Sequence record: OR352938.1
Length of the DNA: 64,000 nt
Reading direction: 5' to 3' (one strand)
Source: Escherichia phage AV108
Shown: positions 4,002 to 57,573 of the stretch, in pieces
Position numbering within the stretch: the first letter of the stretch is position 1
Layout: each line of letters opens with the position of its first letter
Program-made: the position numbers and the translations under genes
The notes under the pieces: generated by a model
Databases searched by the model: none
What the model was told of the DNA's origin: nothing
Seen by the model: the letters and a program-made list of their open reading frames with translations, nothing else

Positions 4002-4688
4002 TTAGTCGGTGTAGCTGGAGTCAAGGTCACACGCGATCATATAAGATACGGTTTCACTTGCCAGCCATACAGCCTTACGGCGAGTGAAGCTCAGTTTGTA
4101 ATCGCCGAAGTCAGTAGCAACCAGTTTCATGTTATCTTTACGAATAAAGAAATGGAAGTCTGCGGTTCCGGTATATTCGCCCATATCAAGACAAAACATC
4201 TCATTAGGATTATTTTTGTCAATCTCTTCCCAACCTTTGATCATCAGACGACCATCAATCGGAAGAAATTCAAGGCGATCCACTTTAAGCTGATTGCTCA
4301 TTTTCATAAGCTGTTTCAGATCGTCGTTGCTCAGTTCGTAATCTACATCGCTTGCAGGTGGAGTAACTCGGCCTTTCGGTGATACGATAGCAGCAGCACT
4401 AGCACCTGGATAATTAATTTTCAGACGATCATTAGACACACGAATGTTACCAGTGCGGTCATCAACCGTAATATCTGCTTCATCGCCTACCAGATTCAGA
4501 ATACCCAAGAAAGAGTTAAGATCATAGATCCCAATTTCGTGTTCCAGTTCTTGATTCAGAGTCGCTTCACCATAGACAACGTTTGTCATGTTTTTGGTGA
4601 TCAGGACGTTTCCTTTTTTCAGGATGATACCTGGGTTAATAGCGGAAAAGTTTTTCAGGGTAGCAATGGTTTCTTTAGTCAGTTTCAT
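4002..4688 (-). CDS. 45: Sliding clamp gp45
   Basis: MKLTKETIATLKNF... matches T4 gp45 N-terminus and length (228 aa); ATG at 4688 with GGTGA RBS (track start 4691 is TTG). Confidence 0.85.
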   Translation of the reverse strand: MKLTKETIATLKNFSAINPGIILKKGNVLITKNMTNVVYGEATLNQELEHEIGIYDLNSFLGILNLVGDEADITVDDRTGNIRVSNDRLKINYPGASAAAIVSPKGRVTPPASDVDYELSNDDLKQLMKMSNQLKVDRLEFLPIDGRLMIKGWEEIDKNNPNEMFCLDMGEYTGTADFHFFIRKDNMKLVATDFGDYKLSFTRRKAVWLASETVSYMIACDLDSSYTD

Positions 4689-4718
4689 CAAATCACCTTT
4701 ATCATGTTAATCAATTAA

Positions 4719-5111
4719 TTACGGGTTTACTTCGTGCTCATTTTGAATCTTTAGCATTCTTTCGATAAATTTTTTCTCGGCTTCCTTGTCGGATGAGTGA
4801 GTATACTTCAATCCAATGTAAGCTGTCAAGTATTGTTGCAGAGCATAGACAGTAACAGGATTCTTTGCGGTCTTTTTGCCGTCGAGATATACCAGATCAC
4901 CACGAACATCAAACGCAAGTTTACGACGAATCACATCATCAACAAATTTATCTAGAACAAAATACCACTCAATACACTCTATCCCGTGACGGTAGTTCAT
5001 TACATCATTATCTTTGATATAGTCAAACGGAATATGACATAATTTACTATTTTGTAGGATGAATAGCATTTGTTCTTTTAAGCTCATACGTTTCATTCTA
5101 TCACTTCCCAT
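4719..5111 (-). CDS. RpbA-like RNA polymerase-binding protein (by synteny only)
   Basis: ~130 aa ORF immediately downstream of gene 45 as rpbA in T4; start uncertain (TTG/ATG alternatives). Confidence 0.35.
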   Translation of the reverse strand: MGSDRMKRMSLKEQMLFILQNSKLCHIPFDYIKDNDVMNYRHGIECIEWYFVLDKFVDDVIRRKLAFDVRGDLVYLDGKKTAKNPVTVYALQQYLTAYIGLKYTHSSDKEAEKKFIERMLKIQNEHEVNP

Positions 5112-5478
5112 CAGCAATTGCGATCAGACGAGTTACTACTACGCTAGCGGCTTCAATCAGCAGTTCATCAGTGTCAATCTGATAACCTTTTTCGAGAATA
5201 TCTTTACCTCGAACAGTTTTAGAGCCTTTAGCAATTGAATCATCGTAATACTTGCGCATTGCAGCGATCCATTCTTTTTGCACCATATCATCAATATGCG
5301 CGTACAGTTCAAAGCGTGTTTGCTGCGGGATAACCTTCATTTTAGCTTTCTCGCTTTCCGGCATTTGTAGTACCCACGCTTTACGGATCTTGTTCATTGC
5401 TCGGTCAAATTCGAGGCTGGTTTTCTTGTTCTGAATGTCTGCTACAGTAATTTTAGCCAGGTTTGCGGAAGTAGTCAT
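5101..5478 (-). CDS. Hypothetical protein
   Basis: Track ORF; ATG at 5478 preceded by GGAG RBS. Confidence 0.5.
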   Translation of the reverse strand: MTTSANLAKITVADIQNKKTSLEFDRAMNKIRKAWVLQMPESEKAKMKVIPQQTRFELYAHIDDMVQKEWIAAMRKYYDDSIAKGSKTVRGKDILEKGYQIDTDELLIEAASVVVTRLIAIADGK

Positions 5479-16499: not shown

Positions 16500-17039
16500 T
16501 CAAAGGTCGCGATATAGTACATTATGAAAATGAGAACTTGCATTACCAATATTGTAGATAATAAATTCTTCATCCGGCGCTTGCGCTACAAATTGAGTAT
16601 GAGCAACCGCCACAACCTTAAAAATACGATCCGTGATCTTGTGTTTAATTTCTGCCCCTACTTCCATAGGAACATATTCATTTGTTTCTGTTTCAGTCGC
16701 AAAACAGCCATCTTCTTCATAAGCACGAACAAATCTGTCGCAATCAGTACGCTTAACAAATTCAAGAGTATATAATTCTCGTGAATTGTCGGTATAGACC
16801 AATACAGAATTATTATGATAGCGAATCACATACAGGTTATTATCATCGTCAATTACGCAAAAGCTACGGATTCCTTCGCCTTGACTCCAGCAGATATTAA
16901 CCACCGTTCCTCTAATAAAAAAACTTTCCTTTAAATTAAAACTAGTCAATGTGCTAGCGTGCATTTTAACAACAACACCATCGCCAATTTCCAGTTTACG
17001 AATTTTAACTTCTTTGCTCAGTACACAAAACATCATCAT
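16500..17039 (-). CDS. Hypothetical protein (179 aa)
   Basis: Track ORF directly after an early promoter cassette. Confidence 0.5.
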   Translation of the reverse strand: MMMFCVLSKEVKIRKLEIGDGVVVKMHASTLTSFNLKESFFIRGTVVNICWSQGEGIRSFCVIDDDNNLYVIRYHNNSVLVYTDNSRELYTLEFVKRTDCDRFVRAYEEDGCFATETETNEYVPMEVGAEIKHKITDRIFKVVAVAHTQFVAQAPDEEFIIYNIGNASSHFHNVLYRDL

Positions 17040-27694: not shown

Positions 27695-27722
27695 ATTATA
27701 GCATTGTGATTATCTTTGTCAA
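27695..27722 (-). promoter_or_regulatory. sigma70-type early promoter (TTGACA-N16-TATAAT)
   Basis: TTGACA aagataatcacaatgc TATAAT. Confidence 0.5.
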
Positions 27723-27727
27723 CACCC

Positions 27728-27760
27728 AAAAACAAAAAAAGGCTACCCCGAAGGATAGCC
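27728..27760 (-). terminator. Rho-independent terminator after the glycine-rich gene
   Basis: Minus-strand GGGCTATCCttcgGGGTAGCC hairpin followed by TTTTTTTGTTTTT. Confidence 0.6.
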
Positions 27761-27768
27761 CATAAAAA

Positions 27769-28545
27769 TTACACGCGAGCACCGTAGATCGTGCCTACTT
27801 TATCCCAGCGAGGGGCATTGCCAGTAACAGCCTTACCAGCCGCTCCGCCATTATACTCTGTACCGTTCCCCTGAGTATTACATCTTCCTCCAGCAGCACC
27901 AACGTTACCGCCCGCACCGCCTGTATATGCACTAAGAGACCCCGAACCAACAGATCCTTTACCCGGAGCGGAAATGGAGCCAGCGGTTGCACCAGAACCC
28001 ATATTAGAGGAAGACCCGGCAGCACCGAATGGGCGACCACCGCCACCACCAAATACTAGTCGACCCCTGTTACCTCCACCGCCGCCACCGCCGCCACCAG
28101 CGATAGCACCGTTATTTGTAATTCGTAGACGTGTACCGATAGCGTTATTGATTGCGTTTCCACCAGCAGCGCCAGCAGCGTTACTACCACCATTACCCCC
28201 ACGTCCGTAGACAGTCACACCGGAGTTAATGATCAATGTTACATATTCGTTTGTTAACGAGCTAGGGAAGTCAAGACAAGGAACGCCAGTAGATTGGGAA
28301 ACAATATCACCCGTGATAGTAATTACTACAGGAGTAGATCCTTGTGCTTTCATCCAGTTAATAAGAGTGTCTTTATTGTAAGAGTTACTAGCACCAATGC
28401 TATAATGAATCTCTTTAGAGCGTCCGACCATTGCCGACATATACGCCGGACGACCTAAGCGTACAGCTTGCATTGCGGCGCTCATCCACCGTTGACCAGT
28501 CTCGGACACAGCAGATGATCCTACCCATCCAGAAGATATTGCCAT
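27769..28545 (-). CDS. Glycine-rich gp38-like tail-fiber adhesin candidate (258 aa)
   Basis: N-terminal ~110 aa MAISSGWVGSSAVSETGQRWMS... followed by glycine-rich motifs (GGNGG, nine consecutive G, GGGGGRPFGAAG, GGAGGNVGAAGG) alternating with short variable segments, the architecture of T2-type gp38 adhesins; assignment from remembered similarity. Confidence 0.5.
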   Translation of the reverse strand: MAISSGWVGSSAVSETGQRWMSAAMQAVRLGRPAYMSAMVGRSKEIHYSIGASNSYNKDTLINWMKAQGSTPVVITITGDIVSQSTGVPCLDFPSSLTNEYVTLIINSGVTVYGRGGNGGSNAAGAAGGNAINNAIGTRLRITNNGAIAGGGGGGGGGNRGRLVFGGGGGRPFGAAGSSSNMGSGATAGSISAPGKGSVGSGSLSAYTGGAGGNVGAAGGRCNTQGNGTEYNGGAAGKAVTGNAPRWDKVGTIYGARV

Positions 28546-28599
28546 AAAATTTCCTCACAAGAAAAGCCCCATTTAAGGTGCATTGATTGATAATATTAC

Positions 28600-28821
28600 T
28601 TAGATGATCTCTGCTTCACCATTCAGGAAGAAAGACCATGTTTTGTTAGGATAGCGAAGCGCCCATGATTCAGCAGTTTTAACACCCGCTTCGAACAATT
28701 GACGGCTGGTTACTTTAGCCATACCATCGAAGATGGCAACGTTTTCAATAATCATCGGGTACTTAGCGCCACGCATGAAACCGAAACCAGCGGAAGATTT
28801 GATAATTTTAACAGTTGCCAT
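28600..28821 (-). CDS. Hypothetical protein (~73 aa)
   Basis: Start MATVKIIK after GGAGAATCAAA RBS. Confidence 0.5.
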   Translation of the reverse strand: MATVKIIKSSAGFGFMRGAKYPMIIENVAIFDGMAKVTSRQLFEAGVKTAESWALRYPNKTWSFFLNGEAEII

Positions 28822-28860
28822 TTTGATTCTCCTAGAAAGTGTATCTCGTTTCGATGGGTG

Positions 28861-28890
28861 TATTATGCAATAACACCGGATCGCTGTCAA
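28861..28890 (-). promoter_or_regulatory. sigma70-type early promoter
   Basis: TTGACA-N18-ATAATA; conserved CATCGAAACGAGATAC leader. Confidence 0.45.
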
Positions 28891-28907
28891 CACTTTCTAA
28901 GAAATTT

Positions 28908-29192
28908 TTAAACTAATCGAATATAACCCAGAATTTCAGCACTTTTAGCCAGATCTAAAACTTCCCATTCAAGGTCTCCATAGTCATAATTTGCAACCAT
29001 CAACTGACCATTTTTCATGCAGCAATCATGAGAGAAAATTTGCCCCGCATAAACTACGATAGTGATAAACTTTCCTGATTCTGGCGGTGTGGAAGACAAA
29101 GCGGCCATATGACCATTCAGCTTAGTCACCAGTGATGGAACAATAAAATTCGGGCTTACCTTAATACCGTTAAATTCGTTTGTGTCTTTCAT
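28908..29192 (-). CDS. Hypothetical protein (94 aa)
   Basis: Track ORF. Confidence 0.4.
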   Translation of the reverse strand: MKDTNEFNGIKVSPNFIVPSLVTKLNGHMAALSSTPPESGKFITIVVYAGQIFSHDCCMKNGQLMVANYDYGDLEWEVLDLAKSAEILGYIRLV

Positions 29193-29539
29193 GCCAGACC
29201 TCGCAAAACACTAATAGCATAATCATGCTGGTTATTCATAATATCAATTGCATTGTGATAACGAGCTAAACCATCAAGGATAAATTCTTGTTTATCTTGT
29301 TTCAGTTTGGTATCACGCGCAGCCATAAGAGCATCAAGAACAGGTCCAAAGTGATTATCTAATTCATCTTCGGTTGCAATGTTTCCTATTGCCTCGTCGA
29401 TCCGTGATTCTAATGCTTGCTTTTCGTTGATCACTTGCTGGGTATATTCCAACACATCAAGAATATCGCGGGTAACATCGCCATGATAAGGTATTCCCGC
29501 ATGAAGATGATCAATTAGTCGTTGAATGTCAATGTTCAT
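29189..29539 (-). CDS. Hypothetical protein (116 aa)
   Basis: Track ORF, ATGA coupling. Confidence 0.4.
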   Translation of the reverse strand: MNIDIQRLIDHLHAGIPYHGDVTRDILDVLEYTQQVINEKQALESRIDEAIGNIATEDELDNHFGPVLDALMAARDTKLKQDKQEFILDGLARYHNAIDIMNNQHDYAISVLRGLA

Positions 29540-30103: not shown

Positions 30104-30132
30104 ATTATGCTATACCCTATTCCGGTTGTCAA
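30104..30132 (-). promoter_or_regulatory. sigma70-type early promoter (TTGACA-N17-CATAAT)
   Basis: TTGACA aaccggaatagggtatag CATAAT. Confidence 0.5.
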
Positions 30133-30142
30133 CACCTAAAAA

Positions 30143-30173
30143 CGAAAAAGCCACCCTTTCGGATGGCTTTTTG
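30143..30173. terminator. Rho-independent terminator (stem with GAAA tetraloop), palindromic/bidirectional
   Basis: AGCCATCC-GAAA-GGGTGGCT flanked by A-run and T-run. Confidence 0.6.
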
Positions 30174-31090: not shown

Positions 31091-31158
31091 AAGTCATTCC
31101 CCCAGATTGAAAATATTCAGTTATATTTATAATCCGGGGCTTTATTTATGATTAACTC

Positions 31159-45136: not shown

Positions 45137-45727
45137 TTACTTTCTAAAAGCAGGGTGCATAGCTTTAATACCTTCCACCCTCTGACGATCCGCCGCCTGA
45201 ATTGCTGGGCGAGGAACGATCAGTTGACCATCACGTTCAATGCTCATTGTTTTAAAGGGAAGAATTGCAGTACACACCAGAGATTCATGCATATCATCGG
45301 TGTATGTTAACTCAAGTTCCCCCAATTGTGAACACCAACAACCATAAAAGTTAAAAGTGCACACAATGTTACGTCGTTCGTTGTCCATCATGTGAACTTG
45401 AACGGCTTCCGGCATTGAATCCTTCCACGCTGTGGAGTTACCGTTATTGTAGTCTACTATAGAAAGCATCCATGTGTAAAGGTTTAGATAGCTTTCCAAA
45501 TGCTCATCAACGATAAACCGGACTACCAACGGGTCAAACTCCACATGACTAGACGGATAATCAGCGACCGCCAAACCATATTGACCAGCAACTTGCTTAG
45601 TCGGTGGAATGGTTATAGCCGGAAGTGTAACACCTTGACAGTTTAAAGTAAAGCCTTTTGTTAGTTGACCATCTGGAATGGCAATCTGCCAGTTGCTAGG
45701 GTTAGCATAGTTAAAGAGATTGGACAT
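45137..45727 (-). CDS. 3: Tail completion/sheath stabiliser gp3 (by synteny)
   Basis: 196 aa ORF immediately downstream of gene 1 as in T4; no motif confirmation. Confidence 0.4.
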   Translation of the reverse strand: MSNLFNYANPSNWQIAIPDGQLTKGFTLNCQGVTLPAITIPPTKQVAGQYGLAVADYPSSHVEFDPLVVRFIVDEHLESYLNLYTWMLSIVDYNNGNSTAWKDSMPEAVQVHMMDNERRNIVCTFNFYGCWCSQLGELELTYTDDMHESLVCTAILPFKTMSIERDGQLIVPRPAIQAADRQRVEGIKAMHPAFRK

Positions 45728-45757
45728 TACGATTCCTTAAATGAAAATATTTATCAA

Positions 45758-46291
45758 CTAAAAATTTAAACTAGCATAATCTCCAAAATGTTCCTTTGCT
45801 GCTTCGTCATAAGCCTTTGCAGCATCAACTTCGTCAAGAAAGACGCCCAAATGGACCTTTCTACGATTGATTGATATCTGAGCACACCATTTGTTATTCT
45901 GTGTTCTAATCACTCCTTTATACTTACTCTTACAACCATCAAGTTTTCCGCGATTGAACGCATTTTCCTGAGAAGTGGATTCTCTCAAGTTATCCGGTGC
46001 ATTATTTTCTCGGTTTCTATCTACATGGTCGATCATTTTAACTTGCGTACCATGTTCAAGATACCAAACAACCCTATGAACTTTAATGACCAAAGAATAG
46101 CCATCACTGCGCCAAAACTTAAAACATAGATAACCTCGACTATTTTTATAAACTTTAACCGGGTCTCCTGCCTTATACCATCGACCATTCTTTCCACTAT
46201 CTTTCAAATGATACAATATACCATTAACGTGTTTATACTTATCTCTAATTTCTTTTTGTGTAAAATCATCCCACATCTTAAAACCAGACAT
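45758..46291 (-). CDS. Free-standing HNH endonuclease with AP2 DNA-binding domain
   Basis: IDHVDRNRENNAPDNLR (HNH) and KYKGVIRTQNNKWCAQISINRRKVHLGVFLDEVDAAKAYDEAAKEHFG (AP2-like); own promoter upstream. Confidence 0.7.
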   Translation of the reverse strand: MSGFKMWDDFTQKEIRDKYKHVNGILYHLKDSGKNGRWYKAGDPVKVYKNSRGYLCFKFWRSDGYSLVIKVHRVVWYLEHGTQVKMIDHVDRNRENNAPDNLRESTSQENAFNRGKLDGCKSKYKGVIRTQNNKWCAQISINRRKVHLGVFLDEVDAAKAYDEAAKEHFGDYASLNF

Positions 46292-52589: not shown

Positions 52590-54490
52590 CAAAGCAAAAG
52601 ATTACACAAATTCCTGATATTTTTAATGCTGCTACGTTTGATGAAATTAAAAGCGCATTAACAGACTGGATGAGAAACCAGGAAGAATTTAAAGATTTTG
52701 ATTTTAATGGTGCTGGCATTAACGTATTGATGGACTTGCTCGCATATAACACTCTGTATATTCAGCAATTCGCTAACGCCGCGCTATATGAATCTTTTAT
52801 CAGAACGGCAATTAAGCGTAGTTCAGTTGTTCAAGCCGCGCAAGATTTAGGATATTTGCCAGCAAGTAAAACTAGTGCATCGACCACAATTATGTTGCAC
52901 GTATCACATCCGCGAAATCCGGCAAGTATTCGAATCCCACGAGGAACTAAATTTATTGCAAGTGTGGATCGCCAGACTTCTTACCCGTTTGTGACTACAG
53001 AAGACGTTGTGAGCGTTTTAGGTTCAAATGGTTTATATACGCCTATGCTTAAAGTCGCACAAGGTCGTATTGTTCGTACAGAAATGTTATTTGATCCGAA
53101 GAAACAAATTCTGATCCGTGATCCTGATATTGACCGCGCTCAGGTTAAGTTGTGGGTAGATGGTGCTGAATGGAAAGACTGGACACGAGAAAGCATTGTT
53201 AACGCAACTGGCGCTAGTAATATTTTCTATATGCGTGAAACCGTAGACGGTCATACAGAAATCTTCTTTGGTGAAGGTGAATCAACTTTATCTGCTGCTG
53301 GCGGGGCGCTGGAAGCAAATTATATTGGTGGACTTAAGCCGTCAACTGGTGCTAATATTGTTATCGAATATATTAGCACTAAAGGCGCGGAAGCAAACGG
53401 TTCAGTTAATTTTACATATGCGGATACCCTTGCATCTATCTCTATTGTTAAAATTATTGAGAATCCGACAAATGATCGTGATTATGTCGGTGCAGATGGT
53501 GGTGGTGATCCTGAATCAATCGAACGTATCCGTGAACTTGCTCCGGTAATGCGTGAATCTCAGCGTCGTTGTGTTACTGCTTCTGACTATGAGGCTTTTG
53601 TATCTAGCCGTTTTGGTAGTATTGTTCAGGCGGTACAATGTTTCACCGACCGAGAAAAACCGGGTTATGCTTTTGTTGCGGTTAAGCCTAAATCTGGCTT
53701 GCGCTTGACAACTGTTCAAAAAGAAGATATGAGGGATTATCTGGCAAAATATAATCTTGCCCCTATCACGCCGAGCATCATTGACCCTAACTATCTGTAT
53801 ATTAAACAGAATATTAAAGTTTCCTATTCAATCAATGACTTGTCAGAATCAGAGCAGTGGTTGCGAGGTGCGGTTATTGATCAGATAGATGCATATTATA
53901 CCGACGAAGTGGAAATTTTTAACCAGACCTTTAGTAAGTCTAAAATGCTTGCTCGTATTGACAAAGCTGACGTGTCTGTGATAGGTTCTAGTGCAGAAAT
54001 CGAGATGGTGCGAGAGATCGACAACTTCTATAAAGCACCTATGGCTGGAATCAAGTTTTTAAACCAGTATAAGAGCGGAATCAAGTCTAGTTCGTTCAAC
54101 TTCGAAAAGGACGACAAGCAATATCCGATCCATTATGTAAGTACAGAAATGAACAAAGAATCAGGTTTAGCTAAATTGTTGGTTGGACCTTTCCCTGTTG
54201 ATTCTACAATCGCTTTACCGCACTATTCCGGCACTGATTTTGATAAAGAGGTTATTGACGGGGCGGACCTATACTTTGAGGTTGGAGAAGTTCAGCATTA
54301 TGACGACCTTATTTCATGGGATCTGGGTAAACTGAATATCAATAGCGATCGCTTTACTGGTTCATATATTGAGTTGACAGCTAAACCGATTGCTGATAAC
54401 ATCTTTACTAAAGACGGTTCTTTGATCGTGTTTGAAAACGATCTCCGTCCTCAGTACACAACTATTAGTCTGGAGGCAATTGCTCAATGA
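52586..54490 (+). CDS. 6: Baseplate wedge protein gp6
   Basis: 634 aa (T4 660); position 5.4-6-7. Confidence 0.7.
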
Positions 54491-57400
54491 TTAAAGCGCC
54501 TAGTGTAACTAGCTTGACAATAGAAAAATTGTCTGCTAATCAGGCGTATATCACATGGGATGACGTAGGCGAAAACTTCTTTTATTTTGTGGAGTTAGCC
54601 GAAACCAGAACACGAGACGGGGAGATCATCCCCGTCGATGAGTTAAGCTGGGTAAACCTGGGATATACTGCCGACCAAAACTGGTTTGAGGATAAAAACC
54701 TTTTTCCAGAATATTATTACAAATTTCGTGTAGCAGTAGCCGCAGAAGGATTTGAACAAAGTAAATGGATTGAAACCGAAGAGTTTCAGACATTTAAAAC
54801 AAACGCATATAATTTTTCTATGATGCGAGAGTTCAACCTTGCAAACGAATTTGTTAAGCAAAAGTTTACATATGATAATCGTGATTATATTAAATTCAAT
54901 ACTGATTTAATTCAAGCATCATTGATGCAGGAAGATTTTGTCTTTAGTCCTGAATATGCAAACATCACAAATATTTCTAACAAAATTATTGTTGATGAAA
55001 ACTTTCATGAAATACAGGATCACATAGAAAAAGTTTGTACTGATATAAACCGCACTATGTTAGCGGAAATGAACGGTGTTTTGTACCTTTTCGAACGGTT
55101 CCAGCCGATCGTGAAAGTGTCAAATGATAAAGGTCAATCATGGAAAGCATACAAGGCTTTTAATGATCGTGTAGGCAATCCGGTTTCCCGCACATGCGTT
55201 TATCAGTCTAAAACCACTACTTACGTTTTAGGATATGACCGAATCTTTTACGGACGACAAGCGAGCGATACTCGATGGAGCGCGGACGATGTTCGATTTA
55301 GTGATGATACGATCACTTTTGCAAAGGTTGGTGACGAGAACGATTTAGGCTTTGACGTTGAGGTCTTTGGTGTATTTTCCAGATTAACAGGGGACACCAC
55401 AAAATACGCCGAAGCTATGGCGTGCAGTGATGACTATTTGTGGGTTGGTGCTAAAGATGTTATTCGCCGGATTCGTCTTAAGAATACTCCAGTTGATACC
55501 GTACAGGGTTCGCCTACGTTTGGCGAAAAAATATTCGATCCTGATGTTATCCGAGTAACAGGAAATGATAAAGCTGTCATTCAGAAAATGGATGTGATCG
55601 ACGGTAAATTGCTTGTATTTGTTACTGGTGAAGTTAAACAGCGTTATCAAGATCCAACCAAACCAGAAAACGTTGTTCCGTCAGATGATGCGGGTGTATA
55701 CTTAATAGGGAGTGATGGTCTGTCTTTTCAGAGAGTATTTGGCAACACTCCGCAGGAAAGGGAATATATTCAGCATGGGTTCAGTAATATGTCAACCAAT
55801 GGTGATGAGGTGTTTATAAGCCATTATAATCATCACTTCGAAAGCATTTTACCTGATCCAGAAACTGCCGCGAAATATGAATTGGGCGAAGCTGTAAAAT
55901 ATTCTCAGGAGCCAACTTATCTAACTGATAAGAAAATACATCAAACTACTTTCAGAGCAAGTTATGATGATTTGCGTATTTGGGAGTTAGGACCGCAAGC
56001 GTATTATAATGAGGCCGACTATACATGGATGCGTCGAAACGGTGTTCGTGTATGGATCACAAATGATAATCGCCCGTTGGTTGTTTATCCAGAAGTTGTC
56101 TATACGCAGGAAGTTGATACTTCCGGCATTCTTGATAAAAACAGAATTAACCGTGAAGTTTATGATAAAGGGACCGTGACCTGTTATCTTAACAATGTTA
56201 AATTTGAAGGATTCAAACAATATGCATCCGGTGTAATGTTCCATAAAAACACGGGAGAGATCATTGGATTCTATCAATTTAATTATCGTGTTCGTGACCA
56301 AGTTGGTGTATATTGGAAACCTACAAATGTAGCATTTGTTGCTGAATTGCAAAATCAGGTTCGAGAGGTTCCCTGGGTTCCGGTTCACTACGATCGAGAG
56401 CAAGATCCAGATTTGCGACCTTTACTGAATAAGATGACACCTGATAGCTTTTTACTTGAGAACGAAAATTTCAGAAAATTCTCTGAATATTATCTGCAAT
56501 TCTTAAGTGATGGTTCAGGAACATATTATAATAAACTAAAAAATCTGATTAAAAACAAATATCCACGCGAGCAAGATGCATATGAGTATCTTTGGTCAGA
56601 GATGAACAAACGAAACATCTATGCAGATAAAAACAAGCGAGATGCGGTCGTAAGATTCTTTGAATCCCGCAAATCAGATTTTTATTCCACTAAGGGCGTG
56701 GAGGCTTCTTATAAGTTCTTGTTTAAGTTACTTTATAATGAAGATGTGGAAATTGAGGTTGAATCACAAGCCGGACTAGAGTATGATATTGTTGTTAGTT
56801 CAACGAACATTGACGAGGATATCGTAGGTCGCACGATTTATACCCCGACCGGACGGGCTAACGTGACTTATCTTGAAAGGGAATATGAAGGTGGACGTCT
56901 ACGCTGGCGAGTAACCATTCATAACCTGATCGGGCGGTTCGAAGAAGGTCAAGTGATCAAATCAGAGAAAACAGCGTTTGAAGGGATGATCCTTGTTGGT
57001 GTGCGTGGTAAAGAGTTGTTGAGTAGTTCAATCGACTATATCAACCGCTCACGAAGCCAATACACCATGAAGATTAAAAGTGCATTGCCAGTTTCGCGCT
57101 ATGCAAATGATGTAATGCGATTCGTTCATCCTGTCGGCTTTGGGTTTATCGGTGTTACCCTGCTTACGATGTTCATTAACAGCGGGTTGAGCATGAAGCA
57201 CACCGAGACGATAATTCAATCTCTGAAAAATTATAAGTTTGACAGCGGATTGCCTAGCGTGTATCCTGATCGGGTGGCAGACCTTGACGTTGACGGAAAC
57301 ATTAAGAAAGACCCACTAACAGGGAAACCATTATACTTAACGTCACCGACAATGGGCGAAGAGTTCCCCGTTCCTCCTGAATATGATCAGGAGAACAGCG

Positions 57401-57573
57401 AATTGTTCCACGGACTTAAAGCAAGCGAACGAAGATTTGCAATGAGTCCACTGTTTGACCAGTCGGCGGTAACATTCTCTATGTTCCGTGAACTTGTAGA
57501 TAAACGGTTGAAGGATAATATAGGGAGTCCACGCGATCCGAAGAATCCGACACAGAGGAAAATTAATGGCTAA
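54487..57573 (+). CDS. 7: Baseplate wedge initiator gp7
   Basis: 1028 aa (T4 1032); ATGA coupling to gp6. Confidence 0.75.
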   Translation: MIKAPSVTSLTIEKLSANQAYITWDDVGENFFYFVELAETRTRDGEIIPVDELSWVNLGYTADQNWFEDKNLFPEYYYKFRVAVAAEGFEQSKWIETEEFQTFKTNAYNFSMMREFNLANEFVKQKFTYDNRDYIKFNTDLIQASLMQEDFVFSPEYANITNISNKIIVDENFHEIQDHIEKVCTDINRTMLAEMNGVLYLFERFQPIVKVSNDKGQSWKAYKAFNDRVGNPVSRTCVYQSKTTTYVLGYDRIFYGRQASDTRWSADDVRFSDDTITFAKVGDENDLGFDVEVFGVFSRLTGDTTKYAEAMACSDDYLWVGAKDVIRRIRLKNTPVDTVQGSPTFGEKIFDPDVIRVTGNDKAVIQKMDVIDGKLLVFVTGEVKQRYQDPTKPENVVPSDDAGVYLIGSDGLSFQRVFGNTPQEREYIQHGFSNMSTNGDEVFISHYNHHFESILPDPETAAKYELGEAVKYSQEPTYLTDKKIHQTTFRASYDDLRIWELGPQAYYNEADYTWMRRNGVRVWITNDNRPLVVYPEVVYTQEVDTSGILDKNRINREVYDKGTVTCYLNNVKFEGFKQYASGVMFHKNTGEIIGFYQFNYRVRDQVGVYWKPTNVAFVAELQNQVREVPWVPVHYDREQDPDLRPLLNKMTPDSFLLENENFRKFSEYYLQFLSDGSGTYYNKLKNLIKNKYPREQDAYEYLWSEMNKRNIYADKNKRDAVVRFFESRKSDFYSTKGVEASYKFLFKLLYNEDVEIEVESQAGLEYDIVVSSTNIDEDIVGRTIYTPTGRANVTYLEREYEGGRLRWRVTIHNLIGRFEEGQVIKSEKTAFEGMILVGVRGKELLSSSIDYINRSRSQYTMKIKSALPVSRYANDVMRFVHPVGFGFIGVTLLTMFINSGLSMKHTETIIQSLKNYKFDSGLPSVYPDRVADLDVDGNIKKDPLTGKPLYLTSPTMGEEFPVPPEYDQENSELFHGLKASERRFAMSPLFDQSAVTFSMFRELVDKRLKDNIGSPRDPKNPTQRKING

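Follow-up and report, generated by a model that had tools for sequence, protein, structure and literature searches.

The 258-aa open reading frame on the minus strand at positions 27769..28545 raises the question of why a gene resembling a tail-fibre adhesin lies among small early genes, and whether it encodes the working adhesin of its phage. The window is the whole stretch of DNA analysed, 64 kb (64,000 nucleotides) from Escherichia phage AV108 (OR352938.1). An earlier note, made from the sequence alone, described the frame as a glycine-rich, gp38-like adhesin gene detached from the late tail-fibre module. It offered three explanations: a spare or alternative adhesin, a superinfection-exclusion factor or module shuffling. 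The frame, its quoted N-terminus and all of the quoted glycine motifs are present as described. Overall, the note named the right family and recognised a real detachment, and its functional speculation is wrong.

Family and relatives of the gp38 protein

The translated frame begins MAISSGWVGSSAVSETGQRWMS and consists of two parts that differ in composition, with 33% glycine in aa 111-258 versus 9% in aa 1-110. The glycine motifs are GGNGG (aa 116-120), a run of nine G (aa 150-158), GGGGGRPFGAAG (aa 166-177) and GGAGGNVGAAGG (aa 209-220). The features at and around the gene, g38, are listed in Table 1.

Profile and structure matches agree with the gp38-like architecture proposed in the earlier note, which had allowed that the likeness might be confined to low-complexity glycine repeats. 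The homology is strong. The Pfam family GP38 (PF05268) matches aa 45-258 over 218/218 profile positions (E 4.4e-72), and Gp38_N (PF21721) matches aa 1-40 over 40/40 profile positions (E 3.9e-18). The protein also matches PHROG 2056, "tail fiber protein; host specificity" (E 2.3e-98). Among solved structures, gp38 of Salmonella phage S16 (PDB 6F45_D) matches with its residues 1-247 against aa 1-256 (E 1.4e-49), and a MAFFT alignment of the two proteins has 49% identity with all glycine blocks kept. The glycine blocks also align with those of a GFP-gp38 fusion structure (9V85, chain A; E 2e-35). Judged by these matches, the frame is a T2/S16-type gp38 adhesin; chance low complexity is excluded by the profile and structure matches, and family membership is settled because the sequence matches a solved structure. 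From the full-length 49% identity to S16 gp38 we infer a polyglycine-II sandwich fold. The single-sequence AlphaFold2 model has a pLDDT of 35.6, which is too low for use; AlphaFold models of RB49 gp38 have been reported (PMC9569957).

The S16 protein aligns from end to end, with the N-domain and every glycine-rich block conserved, whereas its variable loops have other sequences and lengths. S16-type g38 lies beside g37 according to the literature, while the Krischvirus gene is about 55 kb away. The T2/T6/K3/Ox2-type proteins (e.g. those of Pu-Krd-SF4 and T6) share the two-domain design of glycine motifs and hypervariable segments. The T-even adhesin gene, however, is on the late strand in the order g36-g37-g38-t, and g38 of the window is on the early strand in the hyperplastic region. 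T4 gp38 has the gene name, and often the product name, in common with the window gene, but it is a chaperone for an adhesin-bearing gp37. It is set apart by the description of Trojet 2011 (PMC3157838), in which T4 gp38 is a chaperone and the T2/T6-type gp38 proteins are adhesins.

The 2.6 kb around g38 are 92-98% identical to more than 40 Krischvirus (RB49-like) genomes, and over 25 kb the identity to pEJ01, PTE-Eco09, Cognac, RB49 and ECD7 is 96.6-97.2%. By this measure the window belongs to a new isolate of the well-known Krischvirus (RB49-like) coliphages. RB49, Phi1, JSE and GEC-3S have a homologous gene at the identical locus, annotated "38". In the relatives, this locus lies between the 49/nrdC/dam block and rI/tk, amid small ORFs without assigned function on one strand. 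The dam/nrdC and rI/tk neighbourhood in the window was identified through synteny with Phi1, whose genome is annotated; it bears out the position between the nrdC/dam block and tk given in the earlier note. The flanking ORFs, promoters and terminators are common to the window and to RB49, Phi1, JSE, GEC-3S and ELT3; the window differs in two weakening base changes in the hairpin 5' of g38.

The window protein is 99.2% identical to the "receptor recognizing protein" of ELT3 and 98.1% identical to gp38 of both RB49 and Phi1. Five substitutions separate it from the RB49 protein (RB49 residue first): K4S, A5S, N80D, G176A and E201S. Allelic variation in Krischvirus gp38 is mostly in the C-domain. 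For example, the GEC-3S/E26 allele is 80% identical to the RB49 type in the C-domain and 98-99% identical in the N-domain.

Naming of the gene is inconsistent. RB49, JSE and GEC-3S give the product as "distal long tail fiber assembly catalyst". KFS-EC (MH560358), Whisky and Cognac have no adhesin name at the match, every feature there being a "hypothetical protein". The ELT3 coding sequence is annotated from an internal Met and is 72 nt short.

Table 1. Features at and around g38, with positions in the window
Feature	Position	Strand	Basis or remark
g38, long-tail-fibre tip adhesin (receptor-recognising protein), 258 aa	27769..28545 (including stop codon)	(-)	ORF listing, ATG start
gp38 N-terminal domain, aa 1-110, putative gp37-tip attachment	28216..28545	(-)	Gp38_N = aa 1-40
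gp38 C-terminal domain, aa 111-258, predicted receptor binding; glycine-rich motifs and variable loops alternate	27772..28215	(-)	Mapped glycine runs
Codons E230-Y231, sites of published RB49 host-range mutations	27853..27858	(-)	aa 228-233 = GTEYNG
Shine-Dalgarno GAGG, 7 nt before ATG	28553..28556	(-)	Read from sequence; invariant in five Krischvirus genomes
Small hairpin and T-tract (stem-loop 28581-28566), weak terminator or attenuator, mutated here	28559..28581	(-)	Between upstream ORF and g38
Upstream 73-aa ORF (RB49 ORF080c homologue), function not assigned	28600..28821	(-)	PHROG 7345, E 3.4e-33
Sigma-70-type early promoter TTGACA-17-CATAAT, nearest upstream of g38	28862..28890	(-)	Promoter scan, 11/12 matches
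Strong intrinsic terminator directly after g38, PeSL stem-loop half	27740..27761	(-)	9-bp stem, 5 GC pairs, T-run
Perfect sigma-70 early promoter for the small ORFs that follow, TTGACA-16-TATAAT with TG	27695..27722	(-)	12/12 matches
T4-type late promoter motif closest to g38 (TATAAATA), 2.6 kb upstream, ahead of rI	31124..31131	(-)	Exact-match scan

Position, copy number and origin of g38

In RB49, g38 is at 45367-46143 and g37 is at 151717-154656, at the end of the tail-fibre order g34-g35-g36-g37. On the circular map, g38 is 54.7 kb downstream of g37, which is the detachment from the late module that the earlier note suspected; the note's counter-case, a gene lying next to gp37 in the complete genome, is not what RB49 has. 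The placement directly downstream of g37 in the late operon, which is typical of the family and not defining for it, is absent for g38. No gp37 is present in the 64-kb window, as the note had observed of the surroundings; a baseplate wedge subunit is encoded by the largest ORF (54487-57573, 1028 aa).

Downstream of RB49 g37 come the 79-aa ORF251w/dc5 (16700-16939 of the RB49 segment) and then the holin gene t. This ORF occupies the slot that is normally that of g38. It belongs to PHROG 402 (function not assigned) and has no Pfam match and no similarity to gp38, and Trojet 2011 leaves the function of the ORF after g37 open (PMC3157838). A tblastn search with the window gp38 finds one place per complete Krischvirus genome among the matches listed. 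For AV108, whose own gp37 lies outside the window, the single copy of g38 is an extrapolation from relatives with about 97% identity.

The displacement in RB49 is already published, in Trojet 2011 (PMC3157838), where Desplats 2002 is cited for it. For five Krischvirus phages, a 2026 preprint (bioRxiv 10.64898/2026.04.02.716166) puts gp38 "approximately 55 kb downstream of gp37". The position is a known hallmark, or exception, of Krischvirus, and the finding is correct but ordinary. Module shuffling, the third suggestion of the earlier note, is a fair description of the locus, but as displacement of g38 it had been reported before (PMC3157838; bioRxiv 10.64898/2026.04.02.716166).

The move of g38 into the early hyperplastic region, with dam/nrdC on one side and rI/tk on the other, would date from an ancestor of the genus. 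The third-position GC content (GC3) of g38, calculated for the Phi1 copy, is 0.32 and that of its neighbours is 0.22-0.50. A recent acquisition was rejected on these values: GC3 is typical of the neighbours, so there is no sign of recent import, in agreement with a move that took place in the genus ancestor. The overall GC content of g38 (0.50) is raised by glycine codons. A co-translocated neighbour was also rejected, since the 73-aa ORF upstream is restricted to Krischvirus and DNA homology ends at the borders of the g38 ORF.

Similarity at the DNA level to a canonical g38, that of the T-even phage Pu-Krd-SF4, is 72% and is confined to 28532..27766 of the window. The two proteins are 80% identical; aa 46-103 are identical and aa 1-45 diverge. 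The pattern resembles a mosaic, as if displaced and canonical g38 genes had exchanged segments, and it fits modular exchange within a common gp38 gene pool. The Pu-Krd-SF4 gene (4480-5265 of the compared segment, in the order g37-g38-t) has a C-domain like that of the GEC-3S/E26 allele.

In the promoter-early stem-loop (PeSL) units of RB49 and phi1, a near-consensus early promoter comes directly after a terminator (PMC4122927); these units have been proposed to mediate shuffling in the two phages (Arbiol 2010; Comeau 2014). Such a border is present 3' of g38 (27761-27740 and 27722-27695). There, a stem-loop and a near-perfect TTGACA-N16/17-TATAAT follow the gene directly (27761-27695), as in the PeSL cassettes of RB49 and phi1. 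The 5' side differs: its promoter (28890-28862) lacks a stem-loop, and the weak hairpin there (28581-28566) stands apart. We infer that g38 moved by means of PeSL units. The gene is not named among PeSL-moved genes in the PeSL papers examined, and Arbiol 2010 does not mention gene 38.

Between two PeSL-type units, at 27695-27761 and 30104-30172 on the minus strand, lies a block of six ORFs, g38 among them. Consensus early promoters are also found at 28890-28862 and 25648-25620.

Transcription and translation signals

The strong terminator that the earlier note saw directly after the ORF is present (27761-27740; dG -14.7 kcal/mol, z -4.6). It corresponds to the RB49 TransTerm terminator at 45339-45360, which has a confidence of 100 (Nolan 2006 supplement). 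The promoter that follows it is Pe:45336 of RB49 and forms the promoter half of the PeSL unit.

Upstream of g38, the 73-aa ORF has no Pfam match; its homologues, in 57 records, are all from Krischvirus and at least 90% identical. Together with g38 it apparently forms one transcription unit. The early promoter ahead of this ORF is conserved in five genomes and is the predicted RB49 early promoter Pe:46502. Within the ORF, the codon at 28729-28731 (-) is TTC (Phe) versus GAA (Glu) in four relatives, and the rest is nearly invariant.

The hairpin between the 73-aa ORF and g38, with a GC stem of 5 bp, is annotated as a terminator in GEC-3S, and in RB49 a TransTerm terminator is given at 46164-46179, "38<--RB49ORF080c" (Nolan 2006 supplement). 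In GEC-3S, Phi1, ELT3 and E26 it reads GCCCC-TTAATT-GGGGC (dG -11.2 kcal/mol). In the window it reads GCACC-TTAAAT-GGGGC TTTTCTT (dG -4.7 kcal/mol), with isolate-specific changes in the stem (C to A at 28579) and the loop (T to A at 28572). The weakened hairpin could allow more read-through into g38 in this isolate, if the calculated stabilities are a guide.

The late promoter motif nearest to g38 is the predicted RB49 promoter Pl:48756. The published RB49 late-promoter predictions include none nearer to the gene, and terminators are predicted on both of its sides. In the tail-fibre module of RB49, TATAAATA is found 36 and 41 nt before g34 and g36, respectively, and TCTAAATA before g37, with a range of 36-47 nt. 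On the minus strand at 28546-29232, about 690 nt upstream of g38, no TATAAATA with one mismatch or fewer is found. A virion protein without a late promoter is unusual. The two best late-promoter candidates near g38, CTTAAATG and TAATATTA, were rejected because each has three mismatches to the consensus. Escape of g38 from RegB through a Shine-Dalgarno sequence without GGAG was also rejected, since only 19/39 genes in the Phi1 region have an upstream GGAG.

Over the window (1-64000), matches to TATAAATA with one mismatch or fewer are depleted: 92 are observed versus 140 +/- 11 expected, and 100/100 shuffles have 92 or more. This depletion suggests selection against spurious late promoters.

From the arrangement of these signals, g38 is probably expressed, at a modest level, by read-through of the hairpin from the early promoter at 28890-28862, a reading held with moderate confidence. 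A modest output would suit one gp38 monomer per long tail fibre; little of the protein is needed because a single monomer is present on each of the six fibres (PMC9569957). Alternatively, expression may come from a non-consensus late promoter or, by read-through, from the late promoter of rI, which is 2.6 kb upstream. A second role for an early-made pool of gp38, raised in this isolate by the mutation at 28579, is very unlikely; such a pool, made from the start of infection, might for example pre-load or chaperone the gp37 tip or interfere with secondary infection.

Role of gp38 and alternative explanations

Spontaneous host-range mutants of RB49 that gained growth on E. coli F17 have E230K, or E230K and Y231S, in gp38 as their sole changes (Efimov et al. 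2022, PMC9569957). Because these host-range mutations map to g38, the gene is a working long-tail-fibre adhesin in RB49. The same study describes gp38 as the long-tail-fibre receptor-binding protein for O antigens and OmpA, and its account of the S16 gp37-gp38 structure is the basis for attachment of the N-domain to gp37 (PMC9569957). Genome-wide screens assign RB49 to OmpA, and an AlphaFold3 model of the pair was made (bioRxiv 10.64898/2026.04.02.716166). Both E230 and Y231 are present in the window protein, and by analogy with RB49 it would recognise the receptor and set host range.

Tested as a relative, RB49 has a gp37 of 979 aa with a Peptidase_S74 domain at aa 871-930 (E 1.4e-11). Fibres with a separate gp38 as their cap are expected to have such an S74 intramolecular chaperone. 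In the proposed mechanism, gp37 would trimerise by means of its own C-terminal S74 chaperone, which would later be cleaved off, as shown for close homologues. The conserved N-domain of gp38 (aa 1 to about 110) would then dock on the exposed gp37 tip, as close homologues indicate. The glycine-rich C-domain (aa 111-258) would offer its variable loops to the receptor, which in RB49 is OmpA and certain O antigens. With high confidence, g38 is the only, functional long-tail-fibre tip adhesin of an RB49-like coliphage, relocated in an ancestor and most likely expressed from an early promoter.

The earlier note's suggestion of a spare or alternative host-range determinant would make g38 a second adhesin gene beside a canonical copy. 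Its site amid small accessory ORFs, flanked by promoter-terminator cassettes associated with shuffling, is what such a gene might be expected to have. However, each Krischvirus genome among the matches listed has one gp38-like place, the slot after RB49 g37 holds the 79-aa ORF without gp38 similarity (PHROG 402, no Pfam match) and then t, and it is to this very gene that the RB49 host-range mutations map (PMC9569957). For the relatives of AV108 this explanation is effectively refuted, and for the window gene it is scarcely credible. The superinfection-exclusion factor that the note proposed would be an early soluble protein that masks the receptor instead of, or in addition to, acting at the fibre tip. 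The early strand, the sigma-70 promoter upstream, the want of a recognisable late promoter and the hairpin weakened in this isolate all agree with early synthesis, but the protein is a full-length adhesin with its gp37-docking N-domain intact and without a signal peptide or export feature. OmpA and O antigen would be out of reach for a cytoplasmic protein inside the cell. The RB49 mutants, whose E230K and Y231S changes lie in this gene, already explain the adhesin role (PMC9569957), and no exclusion phenotype for gp38 is found in this analysis or in the literature examined; an exclusion factor is highly improbable.

The GenBank product names in RB49, JSE and GEC-3S point to a different protein, a non-structural assembly chaperone of the T4 type ("distal long tail fiber assembly catalyst"). 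This reading deserves almost no credence. The C-domain aligns with the S16 and GFP-gp38 adhesin structures through all glycine-rich blocks, and the host-range mutations are in this domain (PMC9569957). The T2/T6-type proteins are adhesins in the account of Trojet 2011 (PMC3157838), and RB49 gp37 has an S74 chaperone domain of its own.

Beyond correct annotation, the fibre-tip adhesin encoded by g38 is of little significance. The gene determines the host range of RB49-like phages, and these serve in phage-therapy cocktails. Spotting it despite its odd position and misleading names is useful for receptor prediction and engineering.
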